From an uncultured Chloroflexia bacterium (GTDB lineage Bacteria; Chloroflexota; Limnocylindria; Limnocylindrales; CSP1-4), in the NCBI GenBank assembly GCA_963776385.1, contig CAVZME010000009.1:134440-198439 (forward strand): DNA of 64,000 nucleotides. Reading direction: 5' to 3'. The number at the start of each line of letters is the position of its first letter. Position 1 is the first letter of the stretch. A model generated the notes under the pieces. It saw only the letters and a program-made list of their open reading frames with translations. It ran no database searches and was not told where the DNA came from. Below, in pieces: positions 1 through 9,480 of the stretch. A program made the position numbers and the translations under genes.

Positions 1-1
1 G

Positions 2-183
2 GTCGCGATGGAGCGATACGGCCCACGTCACGGCGGCCGAGCAGCACCAGGCCGCCGACCTCCTCGACGTGCCCTGGCAGTTCAGCCGGTGACAGTCATC
101 CCGACAGTCACGGACCCCTCGAACGGCGTCTTAGGCCGTCGTCGGGAGCAGCCCGAAGTCCGCGGCCCATGCAAGGTCGTTGG
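2..183 (+). pseudogene. 3-prime fragment of a tyrosine recombinase (integrase) gene; the window starts inside it; frame-disrupted; paralogous to 8781..8960
   Basis: With one frame slip it reads VAMERYG.HVTAAEQHQAADLLD, the conserved C-terminal end of tyrosine recombinases. The DNA aligns block-wise with 8781..8960 (atggagcgatac, caggccgccgacctcctcgac, gacagtcacggac, cccgaagt) up to the shared gttgg end. Confidence 0.45.
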
Positions 184-2891: not shown

Positions 2892-3358
2892 GGCTGTTTA
2901 CTCCTTGGTGGATCTCGACGCGGAAACACAAGTCGATGAGTCCACCCGATCATCGGGTCCCCGGACGCGGCCGGCATTGGCGTGACCAAGCACAACGGGA
3001 CGCCATCGGTTGCCACATCCGCGCAACATCGCTTGCACGTGACGCCAAGACCGAGCGCGACCGCTGGGACGCCGTTCACGACGCCCCTGCCGGCCGGCTG
3101 GACTGTCCGGCCCGCTGACCTTCGATCCTGGCGTCCCCGGCTGGTCCGTGACGGCCCGTTCCACCAGCTGCAGCCACGTCAGGCGCAACCGCAGATGTTC
3201 ACCGGGACTGGCGTGGACGATACAGCCGCGCTGCTTTAGCTCGGACGATCGTCTCCGCGGCGTGCGGCAGCGACCTGTTCGGCACGGCGATCCTGAGATG
3301 TCAAATGACTTACGTTCGGTCGTCAGCAACCTTGCGAATCGTGCGACCTAGCGAGATT

Positions 3359-3395
3359 TGCCTCCGGCGGTAGGACTCGGACCTACGGCCAAGCG
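3359..3395 (-). repeat. Duplicated 3-prime half of tRNA-Asn (putative distal att site of an integrated element)
   Basis: tgcctccggcggtaggactcggacctacggccaagcg matches 8958..8994 (tggctccggcggtaggactcgaacctacgaccaagcg) at 34 of 37 positions in the same orientation. No matching 5-prime tRNA half follows. Confidence 0.6.
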
Positions 3396-4854: not shown

Positions 4855-5235
4855 CTAGAGTGCGCAGGCCGCGAAAGACGCTCCAATCAACGGGCCGAAG
4901 GCGTCTTCGAGGTGGTCGAGTCCCTTGCCATTCCCGAGGTTCGGGTTGTTGCTGCCCTCGCCGATGGTCTTGTCGGTACGGAGCGTCAAGGAATCGGGGC
5001 CGCCGTGGGACGACCAGTAGGCGATGAAGCAGTCTGGGTCGACCCCGGGCGGGAAGTCCGGGCTGTGGGCGAAATCAGCCACGTTCAATGTCGCCCATCG
5101 GCTCGAATTCGTGGCTTTGAGGTTCCCCTCGGCCGAGCGATTGGCGATGAAGCACTCGTGTGCGAATACCGTGCTCGCCATCAAGAGCAGTGCGGCCGTC
5201 GCGAGCGCGACGGACGCCAAGAACCGCCTGGGCAT
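4855..5235 (-). CDS. Hypothetical secreted protein
   Basis: AGGAGGG RBS before the ATG at 5235. The signal peptide is MPRRFLASVALATAALLLMASTVFA/HE. The Cys-containing mature part has normal composition. The upstream extension to 5355 in the ORF track is unlikely to be real. Confidence 0.6.
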   Translation of the reverse strand: MPRRFLASVALATAALLLMASTVFAHECFIANRSAEGNLKATNSSRWATLNVADFAHSPDFPPGVDPDCFIAYWSSHGGPDSLTLRTDKTIGEGSNNPNLGNGKGLDHLEDAFGPLIGASFAACAL

Positions 5236-5445
5236 CGTGATCCCTCCTATGTAGACGGTCCCCGCGGTGTCCGCATGGTCTACTCCCACCGTCCACGTCC
5301 CGTCTAGCCTTGTGGTGCGCGGTGTCACCACAAGCGGACGTGGCCGAGGCCGCATGGCCGCGCTCGCAACCGATGCTTCGTCCTTGGGAACAAGACGACG
5401 TGGGGCTTCCGCCCTGATCCAGTGACGCCGAAGACGATCGAGCCG

Positions 5446-5825: not shown

Positions 5826-7369
5826 TTAGTTGGTGATCGTGATCACGAAGTCCTTGTTCGCGCTGGTGAGGGTGCCTGTCGCGCCAAGAAACTCGCCCGT
5901 GCCGCCGATGATCGTCCCGTTGTCCGGCCGGAGCTCGCCACCGAGGTCGACGGTCTCGTTGATCACGATCTGCCCTCGGTCGGTCAGGGTGATCGTGGAG
6001 CCAGGACAATGGAGCAGGAGACTGCCAGTGTCGATGAAGAAGCATTCGAACGTGATCGTTCCGACCTCATTTCCGGTTGCCGCGTCGAACATGCGGGAAC
6101 CGCCGAGGAGATAGTCACCCTGGCAGGACGTTGCATTCGTGCAGTGCGTGAGTGACCCAACCGAGACGCTGTTGACATCGGTCGGGTGTTCGGTGAGGTG
6201 GACCGTCTGCGGCGCGTTCGCCGGGTTGGGCGAGGCCATGACCGGCTGGGTCGCACCCGGCAACGGGTTGGTAGCGTCCACATGGGTTGTGAACGTGATC
6301 ACGAAATCGCCGCCGGTGGGGAGCGACGTGCTGACGACAGAGCCCGTCGCGCCAAGGAACTCGCCTGTGCCGCCGGTGATCGGCGCGGTCGCCGGTCGCC
6401 CTGAGCCATCGTCGTAGAGCGTCTCGGTGAAGGCGATCTCCCCTCGTCCGGCCAGCCTGATGACATTGCCGGGAGAGTGGAACAGGCTGTGGCCGGTGTC
6501 GACCACGAACTCCACGTACACGAGTGTTCCGACATCCTCGTTTGTCGCCGCATCCACCAACGGGACAACCCCGAGGCGGTAGTCGCCCTGGCAGAACATG
6601 GTGTTCGTGCAGTGCGTGAGTGAACCAACGGGGACGTAGAGACTGTTGCCGGCCACATGCAGGGCGACGTGGAGCGTCTGGGGCTGGTCGCTGGCCGGCG
6701 ACGCCGCTGGCGCTGCGAGTCGGCGTGGTGATCGTGATCACGAAGTCGCCGCCCTCGGTGTAGGTGCTGTCGGCGGGGCTGGTGACGAACCCGATCGCGC
6801 CGAGGAACTCGCCGGTGCCGCCGGTGATCGGCCACGGGTCCAGGGCATAGCCAGGAGCGAAGTGAACGTCTTCGACGTAGTCGATCTGCCCACGCCCGGT
6901 CAGCGTGATCGTGTTGACCGGGGCAGTGGAACAGGCTGGTGGCCGTGTCGACGCTGAAGCATTCGAACCGGAGGCTGCCAACTTCCTTCCTGGTCGTCGC
7001 GTCGAGCAGCGGGTCGTCCCCCACGACATAGTCGCCCTGGCAGGCTGTCGCGCTGGTGCATCCCGTCAATGATCCAACTGAGACCTGGGTGACGTTCCTC
7101 GCCGGCTCGAGGACGTGGATCGTCTGCGACTGGCTGGCAAGTGGCGCCTGGCTGACACTCGGCGGCGGGCTTGCACTCGGCGGCGGGCTTGCACTCGGCG
7201 GGGACACCGTCCTGGCCACGCTGGGGGACGGGCTGGCATCGGGGTTGGCGCTGCTGCAGGCGGCGAGCCCGATAGCCATGGTCAAAAGACACGCGCCGAG
7301 CAGGCGGACGCTCGGAGCGCGCGACGGAAAGGTGGACGTCACTCGAACTGTCTCGTCATTCACGCCCAT
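5826..7369 (-). CDS. Lipoprotein with three tandem dirigent/allene-oxide-cyclase-like beta-barrel domains (two frame changes as sequenced)
   Basis: Lipobox LLTMAIGLAAC plus a PS-rich linker. Three units of about 135 aa each carry VSVGSLT.CT....CQGDY, FEC/VEF..DT..SL.HCPG, ITL.GRGQI and ITGGTGEFLGA.G...S....GDFVITIT. The pieces are joined from ORFs 6299..7540, 6115..7029 and 5826..6656. DNA repeats such as gtgcagtgcgtgagtga occur at about 6145 and 6610. Confidence 0.7.
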
Positions 7370-7962
7370 AGCGTGGTCACCGAATCCGAGGCGCCTTGAG
7401 GATGAGCGGGAGCGATTGGTCAGGGTCGCGACTGAAGTAGGCGGCACCGTGAGTGGCGTTTCCCGCCTTTGCTCGGATGCTGCGCCGAATGGACCGTGGC
7501 GAGCCAGGCCATGCAACCCCTCATGGGGGCCATTCGGCACTGGTGCCGAGCAGAATTGCGAGGGGCCGACAGCTCCCCTGATACCGCCGCAGCACGCGCT
7601 CGAGCTCCTCGGCCGTGGACTCCGGCAACGGCGGGATGCTGCACATCTCCAAAGCGGACAGGGTCGATGAGTCTCGAGGAGGCGCAGCTCGATGGCGCAG
7701 GATCGGATCGCTGCGTGGGAGGGTCCGGGACGCGGAGCGGGGGCCGGTCAGATCACCAACGTCGGAGAATTCGAAGCGATCGCGCGACGAACGCCGCTGC
7801 CAGTGCGCCGGATGGCCCCGGGCATGTCGTCGATCAGACCGATCGTCTCCCTCGATCGCGAGCCCGACGTCGGGCCAGGCTCTCCGTGGTCGGGCGGCTT
7901 CGACGGTTGCGCTTTCGGCTCGGCGGGCCCGCTCTTCGATCCGCTCATTGGTGCGGTCCTCG

Positions 7963-8256
7963 CTAGTCCCCTGTCGCGCGTGACGTGAACCAGATGATCG
8001 TCGCCCCGATGATGCCGAGCGGTACGATCCAGATGATCAGGAGTAGCCAGATTGTGCTCGAAGAGCCGGAATGGTCACCCAGGGCCATCGAGCTTGCCAG
8101 CCAGACGACCAAGCCGATAACGAACCAGGCTACCCACACGGTGGCAAGGAGTGCCAGGCCAAGGCGTCGGGGCCACGAGCGGCGTGGGGGGCGTCCGGCG
8201 TTCGTCACGAGACCCGGTTGTCGCTGGTCGGCCGATCCACCGTCGTTCATTCCCAC
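7963..8256 (-). CDS. Hypothetical small membrane protein (two TM helices)
   Basis: 97-aa ORF with LGLALLATVWVAWFVIGLVVWLA and IWLLLIIWIVPLGIIGATIIWF hydrophobic helices. Confidence 0.45.
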   Translation of the reverse strand: MGMNDGGSADQRQPGLVTNAGRPPRRSWPRRLGLALLATVWVAWFVIGLVVWLASSMALGDHSGSSSTIWLLLIIWIVPLGIIGATIIWFTSRATGD

Positions 8257-8319: not shown

Positions 8320-8880
8320 GCCCTGAGGCAACTCGGTCCCTGGCCAGTCAGGCCTCCGAGATCCTCGGCCTCGCTCGCTCCGACCTCGACCTCGACCTCG
8401 AACGCAGGACGGTGACGATCCGCCAGCAGCTCTCCGGGTCGGGCACTAGGGCCAGGCTTCGTCGAGACCAAGACCGCCTCTTCGGTCGCCACGATCCCGC
8501 TTCCGATGTTCGTGGTCGATCGACCGCGGGCCCATCTGGCCCGCATCGACGCAGAGCGGCCCATCGTCCCGCTCGGTGACTCGCTCGTCTTCGTCACCGC
8601 GAGAGGCCTGGCAGTCAACGCCTCCTGGTTCACGAAGCAGTTCCAGGCCTTCTCGCCGGTGCTCGGCTCCCCCGGATGCGCCTCCATGACTAGCGCCATG
8701 ATGCGGTGAGCCTGCCCGTGGACGCTGGTCCTCACCCCCGCATCGCCCAGGAGCTGCTCCGGCATGCGCCCGGCAGCAGGGTCACGATGGAGCGATACGC
8801 CCATGTCAGGGCTCCCCAGTAGCGCCAGGCCGCCGACCTCCTCGACCGGGCGCTCGCCGATCCATCGTTGACAGTCACGC
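8320..8880 (+). pseudogene. Tyrosine recombinase/integrase, N-terminally truncated and frameshifted
   Basis: Fragments lie in different frames: SEILGLARSDLDLDLERRTVTIRQQL, ..VETKTASSVATIPLP, MFVVDRPRAHLARIDAERPIVPLGDSLVFVTARGLAVNASWFTKQF, ..HPRIAQELLRHA..VTMERYAHV. It abuts the tRNA-Asn 3-prime end. Confidence 0.7.
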
Positions 8881-8886
8881 TGACAG

Positions 8887-9480
8887 TCACGGACCGGCGA
8901 GGGGTCGTCTCAGAGTGGCTCGGAGCAACCCGAAGTGGGGCCATTCGTGCAGGAAGTTGGCTCCGGCGGTAGGACTCGAACCTACGACCAAGCGGTTAAC
9001 AGCCGCCCGCTCTACCACTGAGCTACGCCGGAGCGAGGACGCCGGGTCCCGGGCGAACGCCGAGGCCGCAAGCGTCATGGGCGCCGGGGAGGCGCCGCGC
9101 GACAGGATAGCACGGAGACCCGGCGCGACAGGACGCGGCCCTGGGTCAGGCCCGCCGCGCACGGCCCGGAGCTGGAACCCGGCGAAGACCTGCATGAAGC
9201 CGAGGACGACCAGCCAGATCCCGCCGATGAAGGCGAGGGTGACCGCCGAAGAGATCGGGTAGGTCAGGATGACGATCCCGGCAAGGATCCCGAGCAGGCC
9301 CATGAAGATCCGCCAGTTGCGGCCCTGCTTCTGCGAGAACGCAGCGACGAATGTCATGACCCCCTGGACCAGCCAGAAGATCCCGAGCACGAAGATGAAG
9401 ACCTCGACCGACTGGAACGGCGTCCGCAGGAGCGCGAAGCCGACGATGACCGACAGGACGCCGATGATCGCGTGGAGCAC
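8887..9480 (-). CDS. HdeD/DUF308-like membrane protein; 3-prime end doubtful (the ORF reads through the tRNA-Asn gene)
   Basis: GTG start. The first 115 aa or so form four Gly/Ile/Leu-rich helices (IIGVLSVIVGFALL, VFIFVLGIFWLVQGVMTFVAAF, IFMGLLGILAGIVILTYP, FIGGIWLVVLGFMQVFAGF), typical of DUF308. The remainder is R/P/A-rich and overlaps the tRNA. A TGA at 9146..9148 in another frame would give a normal length. Confidence 0.5.
   Translation of the reverse strand: MLHAIIGVLSVIVGFALLRTPFQSVEVFIFVLGIFWLVQGVMTFVAAFSQKQGRNWRIFMGLLGILAGIVILTYPISSAVTLAFIGGIWLVVLGFMQVFAGFQLRAVRGGPDPGPRPVAPGLRAILSRGASPAPMTLAASAFARDPASSLRRSSVVERAAVNRLVVGSSPTAGANFLHEWPHFGLLRATLRRPLAGP
8958..9032 (-). tRNA. tRNA-Asn (anticodon GTT), CCA encoded
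   Basis: The reverse complement folds as TCCGGCG TA GCTC AGTGGTA GAGC G GGCGG CTGTTAA CCGCT TGGTC GTAGG TTCGAGT CCTAC CGCCGGA G CCA. The cloverleaf is complete and the anticodon loop is CU-GUU-AA. Confidence 0.9.

Follow-up and report, generated by a model that had tools for sequence, protein, structure and literature searches.

Three fused allene oxide cyclase/dirigent-type barrel units in a putative lipoprotein carried on a decayed tRNA-Asn island of a soil Limnocylindria bacterium

The window analysed here is a 64,000-nucleotide stretch of DNA from an uncultured bacterium of the Limnocylindria (Chloroflexota). Its minus strand (7369-5826) carries a gene that encodes a lipoprotein signal, a Pro/Ser linker and three barrel units (Table 1), beginning with an ATG at 7369 and ending with a TAA at 5828-5826; the conceptual product is ~513 aa long, and in the sequence as assembled the gene is spread over three frames. 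The units are 127-134 aa long, share 53-57% pairwise identity and are separated by Pro-rich linkers of 14 and 25 aa, while the length of the N-terminal tether differs between homologues. At the DNA level, the segment that codes for the GGTGEFLGA core occurs three times, with 468 and 448 nt from one copy to the next (repeat family D1). The repeat motifs quoted in the original prediction (VGSLT.CT....CQGDY, FEC…HCPG, TLTGRGQI, ITGGTGEFLGA.G and GDFVITIT) were all found, and its description of a triple-unit lipoprotein with diverged units was confirmed by the layout, the lipobox and the inter-unit identity. The surroundings of the gene showed neither a sigma-70-like promoter nor an intrinsic terminator.

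Table 1. Features of the three-unit lipoprotein gene and its island (positions in the window)
Feature	Position	Strand	Details
Whole three-unit AOC/dirigent-fold lipoprotein gene	5826..7369	-	End-to-end alignment with intact homologues P0001, P0002 and P0003 and with the full ORF in L034
Signal peptide and lipobox L-A-A-C (Cys38)	7256..7369	-	MGVNDETVRVTSTFPSRAPSVRLLGACLLTMAIGLAAC
Pro/Ser/Ala-rich tether, 43 aa, from lipid anchor to first barrel	7127..7255	-	
Unit 1, 134 aa, four Cys, holds first frame break	6724..7126	-	
Frame break 1, …FHCPG followed by one extra base (CCCCGG[T]CAAC)	6916..6917	-	GGTCAAC here versus GGCAAC in intact homologues
Frame break 2, one extra base in the linker that joins units 1 and 2 (CCGACT[C]GCAGC; …TPT/AAPAASP…)	6716..6719 (~6717)	-	Base absent from intact homologues
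Unit 2, 132 aa, C-x5-C pair only	6285..6680	-	
Unit 3, 127 aa, four Cys, the unit modelled	5829..6209	-	
Putative tyrosine-recombinase catalytic domain remnant, frame-broken, without N-terminal part	8330..8820	+	
tRNA-Asn (GTT), integration site of the island, with the second att copy as its 3' half (8957-8994)	8958..9032	-	
Distal att-like repeat of the 3' half of tRNA-Asn, at the far end of the island	3358..3395	.	35/38 nt match to 8957-8994 (family D7)

The signal sequence reads …RAPSVRLLGACLLTMAIGLAAC/SS and matches the lipobox criterion [LVI][ASTG][GAS]C with a positive n-region and a hydrophobic h-region, as judged without a dedicated predictor. The same start and lipobox occur in the homologous loci L033 and L034, and 119 of 144 single-unit relatives carry a lipobox-like motif. 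The genome to which the window belongs also encodes the lipoprotein-modifying enzyme Lgt (TIGR00544, 166 bits against a cut-off of 118.9), so that the lipid anchoring proposed earlier is backed by both the motif and the enzyme.

As had been suggested, the gene is carried on an island; it forms part of the accessory cargo of this element, which lies at tRNA-Asn and has decayed. The region is bounded by a repeat (att) of the 3' half of tRNA-Asn, and a putative integrase remnant adjoins the tRNA; the joined integrase pieces match Phage_integrase (PF00589) with E 1.1e-5 and 25.7 bits, slightly below the cut-off of 27.1. GC content is 0.65, against 0.70 for the genome, and the family is present in 2 of 25 genomes of the genus. 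Comparison with the relatives' loci showed that the gene alone is common to them (87-89% nucleotide identity), whereas the flanks are not. No conserved neighbours of three-unit genes were found, and none hinting at a substrate; a downstream ORF for a secreted protein of 166 aa (4855-5355) had no Pfam match and no relative in the related loci.

Profile and structure searches placed the repeat in the allene oxide cyclase (AOC)/dirigent/PodA fold, each unit being a predicted eight-stranded barrel, in agreement with the original assignment to the dirigent/AOC-barrel proteins. The Pfam AOC_like profile (PF18678) matched the ORF that covers units 2 and 3 (ORF C) with 26.4 bits (E 6e-6), marginally above the gathering threshold of 25.9, and a lone unit with 15.6 bits; PF18678 is also among the precomputed Pfam hits of P0001-P0004. 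The best match to Pfam Dirigent (PF03018), at 21.6 bits (E 2e-4), missed the threshold of 29.1 bits and covered only the C-terminal GGTG motif region. A profile search of PDB sequences gave remote similarity only (E ~0.03), an NCBIfam search gave no match, and a literature search on PF18678 and AOC-like proteins returned nothing relevant. The AlphaFold model of unit 3, built with 89 homologues, is confident (pLDDT 88.7, pTM 0.82) and has eight strands. Its top Foldseek match in the PDB was PodA (5k21; TM 0.76-0.78, E 7e-5), on which the eight-stranded barrel superposes with an rmsd of 3.0 Å and a probability of 1.00; the dirigents 8th2, 7ywe and 4rev, the AOCs 1z8k and 4h6c, and the cyclases PloI4 and LucK ranked next. 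TM scores were 0.66-0.77 for 8th2 and 7ywe and 0.58-0.60 for 4rev, identities in structural alignments to characterised members were 15-23%, and the GGTGEF.GA.G motif aligned with PodA and the JAC1 dirigent domain.

PodA, the pyocyanin demethylase of Mycobacterium fortuitum (5K21), resembles unit 3 in its barrel (21-23% identity, ~122 aa), has the I-T-G-G-T-G-E motif in common with the present units and is, like the present protein, a bacterial, extracytoplasmic small barrel. It differs in having one unit per chain instead of three; the sequence similarity is marginal (E 0.03), and we know of no C-x5-C loop disulfide in PodA. Plant dirigents (DRR206 4REV, PsPTS2 8TH2, OsJAC1 7YWE) and AOCs likewise have the eight-stranded barrel and the GGTG.F..A.G motif, at 15-17% identity to the present unit; they are trimeric and secreted or extracytoplasmic, as the present protein is also extracytoplasmic, but the plant proteins differ in being glycosylated and in consisting of one, larger unit (160-190 aa). 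A survey of bacterial dirigent-like (DIRL) proteins (BMC Bioinformatics 2022) covered 49 sequences, all single-domain, and its text contains neither 'tandem' nor 'multi-domain' (PMC9344732). Like the present family, DIRL proteins are small, secreted and found in soil bacteria, including Chloroflexi, and the two groups share a β3/β4 Cys pair whose members lie ~11-12 residues apart (FEC…HC here). The present family goes beyond the DIRL proteins in its second, C-x5-C pair and its lipid anchor, and this gene also in the fusion of three units.

The four cysteines originally ascribed to every unit are present in units 1 and 3, but unit 2 has only two, the FEC…HC pair being replaced by E and S. Across 161 domains, the Cys patterns were consistent with conserved pairs: 135 domains were CCCC, 17 were CC+ES and eight were xxCC, and loss of a single Cys was seen once. 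Such paired loss points to two disulfides in each four-Cys unit, and the patterns imply a C-x5-C loop disulfide in each barrel, with an additional β3-β4 disulfide probable in units 1 and 3. The β3-β4 pair is also absent from the singles that form the sister clade of unit 2. A β3-β4 Cys pair was reported for 42 of the 49 bacterial dirigent-like proteins; the plant dirigent disulfide, where present, joins β1 to β8 (PMC9344732).

In a maximum-likelihood tree, each unit type was monophyletic (support 100/97, 100/99 and 100/100) and was nested in a separate clade of standalone single-unit lipoproteins with 83-88% identity, unit 1, for instance, lying among singles such as P0096 and P0122. These single-unit relatives carry their own lipoprotein signals. 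Because the units nest in separate clades of singles, the gene is a fusion of three diverged family members rather than a triplication, and in the history that the phylogeny shows, three separate single-unit lineages were joined once in one reading frame. The earlier view that the units are too diverged for a recent duplication stands as regards divergence, but an old internal duplication does not fit either. No tandem standalone paralogues that could be precursors of the fusion were found. Nor did all three single-unit types turn up in any one genome, and most of the 13 family-bearing genomes are single-copy, so that standalone heterotrimers are not indicated.

A homologue search by unit number returned one- and three-unit relatives and two shorter two-unit entries; within the length ranges searched there were no proteins of four or five units. 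Besides the intact homologues, the three-unit proteins include Capillimicrobium-type proteins of Actinomycetota (P0185-P0226), in which, as here, a single chain, of 418-472 aa in their case, contains three tandem AOC-like units; they too are extracytoplasmic, and they carry no annotation. In this distant family, three units were present in 40 of 42 clusters, the remaining two being the shorter proteins with two units, and in L049 two such genes are adjacent. The Capillimicrobium-type proteins have ~30% identity to the present units, no cysteines in the mature form, a Sec/SPI signal and hardly any linkers, with a unit period of ~137 aa, whereas the present protein has a lipobox and long linkers. 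Since the present units nest among Limnocylindria single-unit proteins, the actinobacterial three-unit family arose independently. In Actinomycetota, the AOC_like matches in open frames of 260-540 aa corresponded to a single C-terminal unit, with a doubtful second short match in L079. Four candidate many-unit relatives (P0052, P0056, P0057 and P0061) proved to be unrelated repeat proteins (Ig-like AIR9 repeats, low complexity). The original prediction did not recognise a triple-domain, lipid-anchored version; unannotated triple-unit AOC-like proteins do occur elsewhere.

The two frame changes noticed earlier are present in this sequence, and each is one extra base relative to the intact homologues; the near-identical fragment P0009 reads ITITTPTAAPAASPASDQPQT across the site of frame break 2. 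Both are most likely long-read assembly errors, and the gene is therefore probably intact in the organism, a view based on the error rate of the assembly and on the intact homologues. Across ~126 kb of orthologous coding DNA the assembly shows 44 unique frame breaks, which hit 29 of 111 conserved genes and are of the extra-base type in 35 cases (80%). The break rate is ~0.35 per kb in housekeeping genes genome-wide and 0.58 per kb on this contig, and the chance of at least two breaks in this gene is ~0.10. Four short-read homologues are intact, and another long-read copy (L033) is broken too, at different sites. None of the three frame segments contains stop codons or other lesions, and dN/dS is 0.2-0.3, downstream of the breaks included. 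All this weighs against a genuine pseudogene, in which real single-base insertions would have inactivated an island cargo that is decaying with its integrase. We regard that alternative as unlikely, though it has points in its favour: the island is old, with att copies that differ at 3 of 38 positions and an integrase without its N-terminal part, the extra bases lie outside long homopolymers, and two breaks in 1.5 kb exceed the genome mean. Programmed +1 frameshifting was ruled out, as neither extra base occurs in the intact homologues and breaks of this type make up 80% of those in the genome. Three separate adjacent genes are what the assembled sequence would suggest at face value, with three ORFs in three frames and a deposited call that is a 186-aa piece (P0069). 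However, homologues in short-read assemblies are intact as single ORFs of 491-539 aa, and the linkers between the units contain neither a signal peptide nor a start site or stop of their own, which makes it extremely improbable that there is more than one gene. Frame breaks in this assembly should not be taken as pseudogenes.

In the mechanism that we propose, the lipid-anchored protein would lie outside the cytoplasmic membrane of soil Limnocylindria, where a flexible Pro/Ser tether would carry the three barrels, and the chain would fold back on itself to give a covalent pseudo-trimer with three non-identical pockets. Such a single-chain pseudo-trimer is the favoured reading of the fusion because the solved PodA, dirigent and AOC structures are all trimers and the complete-looking multi-unit relatives are all three-unit proteins. 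PodA is a homotrimer (PMC10521758), and the trimer formed by the dirigent DRR206 has three isolated sites (PMC4340379). The units could instead be beads on a string, i.e., three independent modules for ligand binding that do not pack together on their flexible stalk and that might trimerise with those of other chains, as the single-unit relatives presumably do. This would fit the long Pro-rich linkers and the occurrence of each unit type alone, presumably working alone. It would also fit the AlphaFold model of a whole intact three-unit homologue (mature part of L034; pLDDT 49, pTM 0.28), which gave no confident inter-unit arrangement, from an alignment in which MAFFT stacks all single-unit homologues onto one unit and which is thus not deep per unit. 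On the other hand, three units recur in two independent families, bar the two shorter entries, the period of the actinobacterial family leaves almost no linker, the fold family is trimeric, and in an eight-stranded up-and-down barrel, such as that modelled for unit 3, the N and C termini would be at the same end, so that short linkers could join neighbours in a parallel trimer. The beads-on-a-string arrangement accordingly seems to us a possible but doubtful alternative to the pseudo-trimer.

As to function, analogy with PodA, dirigents and the PloI4/LucK cyclases makes cofactor-free binding or conversion of a small hydrophobic or aromatic compound the likeliest role; candidate compounds, encountered at the cell surface, would be phenazines, quinones, and phenolics of plant or humus origin. 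A non-enzymatic role as a sensing or structural accessory of the envelope, e.g., as a ligand-presenting partner of ECF sigma/anti-sigma signalling, appears improbable to us, even though the loci of the single-unit relatives speak for it. An ECF sigma gene lies within 4 kb in 6 of 13 single-unit loci, against a background of ~1 per 100 kb (binomial ~5e-4), genes resembling beta-propeller anti-sigma factors lie between the ECF sigma and single-unit genes, and the three genes of L054 overlap one another at the stop codons. However, no three-unit gene adjoins a sigma factor in any locus seen, ECF sigma co-regulation would be equally expected for an inducible detoxifying enzyme, and the characterised members of the fold are all enzymes or reaction-guiding proteins. 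For the explanation as a whole (anchored three-barrel fusion, pseudo-trimer, small-molecule role, island cargo and artefactual breaks), we consider the case evenly balanced.

A more far-reaching possibility, which we put forward tentatively, is that a trimeric enzyme fold was converted into a single-chain pseudo-trimer at least twice independently. The route in Limnocylindria would have been to fuse three previously diverged single-unit lipoproteins into a covalent heterotrimer with three non-identical pockets, one of them without the pocket-side disulfide. These pockets could differ in the reactions they perform or act one after another, in either case converting extracellular aromatic or redox-active soil compounds without a cofactor, and the gene would spread on small tRNA-targeted islands. 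That ECF sigma genes recur near the single-unit relatives points to a response at the cell surface that exogenous compounds could induce. Bacterial dirigent/AOC-like barrels have hardly been characterised, PodA alone having a known reaction, and Limnocylindria are abundant soil bacteria that are uncultured. If the proposal is true, the fusion would be a clean case of a symmetric homo-oligomer becoming an asymmetric single-chain assembly, and it would provide a template for an engineered single-chain PodA- or dirigent-like scaffold with three individually tunable pockets.

The observation behind the original prediction was confirmed as a whole, and its interpretation was supported with four corrections. 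The N terminus of the protein, MGVNDETVRVTSTFPSRAPSVRLLGACLLTMAIGLAAC, comprises a positive n-region, hydrophobic core, and lipobox (L-A-A-C); with Lgt encoded in the genome, this bears out the proposed lipid anchor. A 43-residue Pro/Ser/Ala tether follows the lipobox; after it come the three units (134, 132, and 127 residues), with 14- and 25-residue linkers between them. Every repeat motif quoted earlier was found in the gene, in whose DNA the core coding for GGTGEFLGA recurs at spacings of 468 and 448 nt.

Features of the window
Feature	Position	Strand	Remarks
Three-unit lipoprotein gene	7369-5826	minus	Runs through three reading frames as assembled
Unit 1	7126-6724	minus	
Unit 2	6680-6285	minus	
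Unit 3	6209-5829	minus	
Frame break 1	6916/6917	minus	CCCCGG[T]CAAC, one extra base versus intact homologs
Frame break 2	~6717	minus	CCGACT[C]GCAGC, one extra base versus intact homologs
tRNA-Asn	8958-9032		
Copy of tRNA-Asn 3' half	3358-3395		38 nt, 35 of 38 identical
Integrase 3' end plus flank	8780-8895		
Second copy of integrase 3' end plus flank	1-116		Diverged (76-91%); at left window edge
41-nt direct repeat	920-960 and 7575-7615		90% identity; outside and inside the island, respectively
ORF for secreted 166-aa protein	4855-5355	minus	Just downstream of the gene, same strand; four cysteines (HECF…DPDCF…)
Small membrane-protein ORF	7963-8256	minus	Two or three hydrophobic helices
DUF308 ORF	8887-9480	minus	Pfam E 4.5e-18; reads on through the tRNA-Asn gene

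The proposed dirigent/allene oxide cyclase (AOC)-barrel signature was upheld by both profile and structure searches. The Pfam AOC_like profile (PF18678) matched marginally (26.4 bits, cut-off 25.9) and the Dirigent profile below threshold (21.6 bits, cut-off 29.1), which falls outside strict Pfam Dirigent membership; both matches are centered on the GGTG motif, and an NCBIfam profile search of the gene product gave no match. Unit 3, modeled with 88 aligned sequences from 189 single-unit homologs collected, was predicted to form an eight-stranded antiparallel barrel (mean pLDDT 88.7, pTM 0.82). The top Foldseek match of this model in the PDB was the pyocyanin demethylase PodA (5k21; TM 0.76-0.78, identity 21-23%), followed by the dirigents PsPTS2, OsJAC1-DIR, and DRR206, allene oxide cyclases, and the barrel cyclases PloI4 and LucK; there was no lectin or cupredoxin among the PDB matches. 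The family profile recovered the same proteins from PDB sequences only at E ~0.03, aligned on the ITGGTGEF.GA.G segment. The structure and profile matches together therefore make the dirigent/AOC-barrel assignment right at the fold and superfamily level.

Both frame changes reported for the gene are present as assembled. Uninterrupted full-length ORFs occur in several short-read assemblies, namely the three-unit homologs P0001 (539 aa), P0002 (505 aa, four contigs), and P0003 (491 aa), and locus L034, whose database entry (P0004) merely has a miscalled start; a second copy, L033, whose assembly is of long-read style, has breaks at no fewer than three places, other than those in the window gene. 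Three related genomes supplied 111 orthologous ORFs of 250 aa or more, which were placed by tblastn on contigs C1, C3-C6, and C8-C11 of the window's genome. They revealed 44 unique frame breaks in ~126 kb, or 0.35 per kb, and 29 of the 111 genes had at least one; 35 of the breaks were of the one-extra-base type seen in the three-unit gene. The rate on the window's own contig was 0.58 per kb; at the genome mean rate, a 1.54-kb stretch would have at least two breaks with a probability of ~0.10. The rpoB gene of this genome is intact. Few-contig assemblies of the genus reach a completeness of only 59-87%, a low value of the kind that unpolished long-read MAGs would be expected to show. Against two intact orthologs, dN/dS was 0.2-0.3, also for the part downstream of the breaks; there are no stop codons in the three frame segments. 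Given the intact short-read homologs, the background break rate, the low dN/dS, and the lack of stops, we consider both breaks quite likely to be assembly errors. Genes of this assembly that look like pseudogenes should be read with caution.

The island location was also confirmed. The gene is flanked by tRNA-Asn and the copy of its 3' half, G+C between these repeats is 65% versus 70% elsewhere, and beside tRNA-Asn lies a frame-broken, N-terminally truncated tyrosine-recombinase remnant, whose joined pieces score 25.7 bits against PF00589 (cut-off 27.1). Homologous loci have in common only the gene (87-89% nucleotide identity), not its flanks, and of 25 genomes sampled from the genus, just 2 have any family member at all. 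The family is small (62 representatives among 1.84 billion) and centered on soil Limnocylindria/Chloroflexota MAGs, with a few members in Actinomycetota and one in a Sulfomarinibacteraceae MAG.

Other features of these regions were recorded. The L033 three-unit gene ends ~280 nt from a tRNA-Gly(TCC) (L033:5216-5291, on a long-read contig), a hint that tRNA-targeted elements carry the gene in more than one genome. The second integrase 3'-end copy suggests a neighboring or tandem island of the same type, and a 41-nt direct repeat has one copy on either side of the island boundary. The membrane-protein ORF fills the spot expected for the N-terminal part of the integrase. The secreted-protein ORF had no Pfam match and no relative in related loci or the rest of the genome. 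The DUF308 ORF probably reads on owing to a further frame or stop artefact at its 3' end.

The claim of four cysteines per unit holds for units 1 and 3 but not for unit 2, which has a single pair. At four aligned positions across 161 domains, 135 domains have CCCC, 17 have CC plus E/S, and eight have two non-cysteine residues plus CC, so that cysteine loss is pairwise except in one domain, which lacks a single cysteine. Such pairwise loss is what two disulfides would give: C23-C29, in the C-x5-C loop linking strands 1 and 2, and C56-C68, in strands 3 and 4. The latter corresponds to a β3-β4 pair that a survey reported for 42 of 49 bacterial dirigent-like proteins and placed beside the presumed substrate-pocket region of plant dirigents (PMC9344732). 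This pair is absent from unit 2 and its standalone relatives.

The units were said to have diverged without recent duplication; the divergence stands (53-57% pairwise identity), and the origin is corrected to fusion of separate family members. For every unit type there are standalone lipoproteins (160-200 aa) that have a signal peptide and a lipobox of their own: unit 1 is matched by P0096 and P0122 (~85-88%), unit 2 by P0123, which shares its E/S replacement and TLYDDGSGRPATA loop, and unit 3 by P0070 (83%). A maximum-likelihood tree of the 161 domains splits the units of the five three-unit proteins into three clades (support 100/97, 100/99, and 100/100), each nested in a different, well-supported clade of singles (41 rows, 99/97; 17 rows, 100/98; 26 rows, 100/100). 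This nesting rules out triplication in place and shows that the gene was built once, out of three family members that had diverged before they were fused. Of the 13 public genomes with the family, most have one copy, and no standalone family genes arranged in tandem were found. Two proteins, P0006 (295 aa, on a 1.03-Mb contig) and P0007 (339 aa), carry a different ~170-aa N-terminal domain of unknown family plus one AOC-like unit; in the tree they lie on a long branch inside the unit-1-side clade.

The triple-domain form had not been recognized earlier, but triple-unit relatives do exist. In a Capillimicrobium sp. MAG (DATMSA010000111.1, L049:2449-5149), two adjacent genes each encode three distant, cysteine-free AOC-like units. 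A search with one of these proteins gave at least 42 clusters, with identity down to 29%; 40 of the 42 have three units (367-472 aa), two shorter ones have two (263 and 307 aa, the latter from a 1.3-kb contig), and none has four or five, lengths to 757 aa being admitted. The three-unit members, a family unannotated in public sources, carry Sec signals, and their units recur every ~137 residues with almost no linker. Among 301 sampled Actinomycetota genomes, the remaining long open frames that match AOC_like hold one unit, the exception being L079, with a doubtful second short match. Apparent many-unit proteins in the representative search were rejected as unrelated repeat proteins.

Allene oxide cyclases are trimers. 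Solved members of the fold that are likewise trimeric include PodA (PMC10521758) and the dirigent DRR206 (PMC4340379). The present and Capillimicrobium-type families thus represent at least two separate origins of the three-unit chain in a trimeric fold. As the up-and-down eight-stranded barrel would have both termini at the same end, short linkers could join neighbors in a parallel trimer. These considerations lead us to favor a single-chain pseudo-trimer, at a confidence that is evenly balanced. AlphaFold on a whole intact three-unit homolog gave a low-confidence model (pLDDT 49, pTM 0.28) because the alignment was shallow.

The three-unit genes had no conserved neighbors in the loci examined. 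Single-unit relatives have an ECF sigma gene within 4 kb in 6 of 13 loci (background density about one per 100 kb, binomial ~5e-4), with Kelch, PD40, or BNR propeller proteins of the anti-sigma type in between; at L054:8069-10585, the sigma, propeller, and single-unit genes overlap at their stops. A cassette of ECF sigma, anti-sigma-like membrane propeller protein, and single-unit AOC-like lipoprotein recurs in Limnocylindria-type MAGs (L054, L039, L040, L041, L042, L047, L048). This context of the single-unit relatives fits an inducible extracytoplasmic response. The main rival to the function we propose is that the three-unit protein is a sensing accessory. To our knowledge, all characterized proteins of this fold bind a small ligand, hydrophobic or aromatic, inside the barrel and need no cofactor to act. 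By analogy with these proteins, the role to which we commit is that of a surface-anchored protein that would bind or convert a small molecule.
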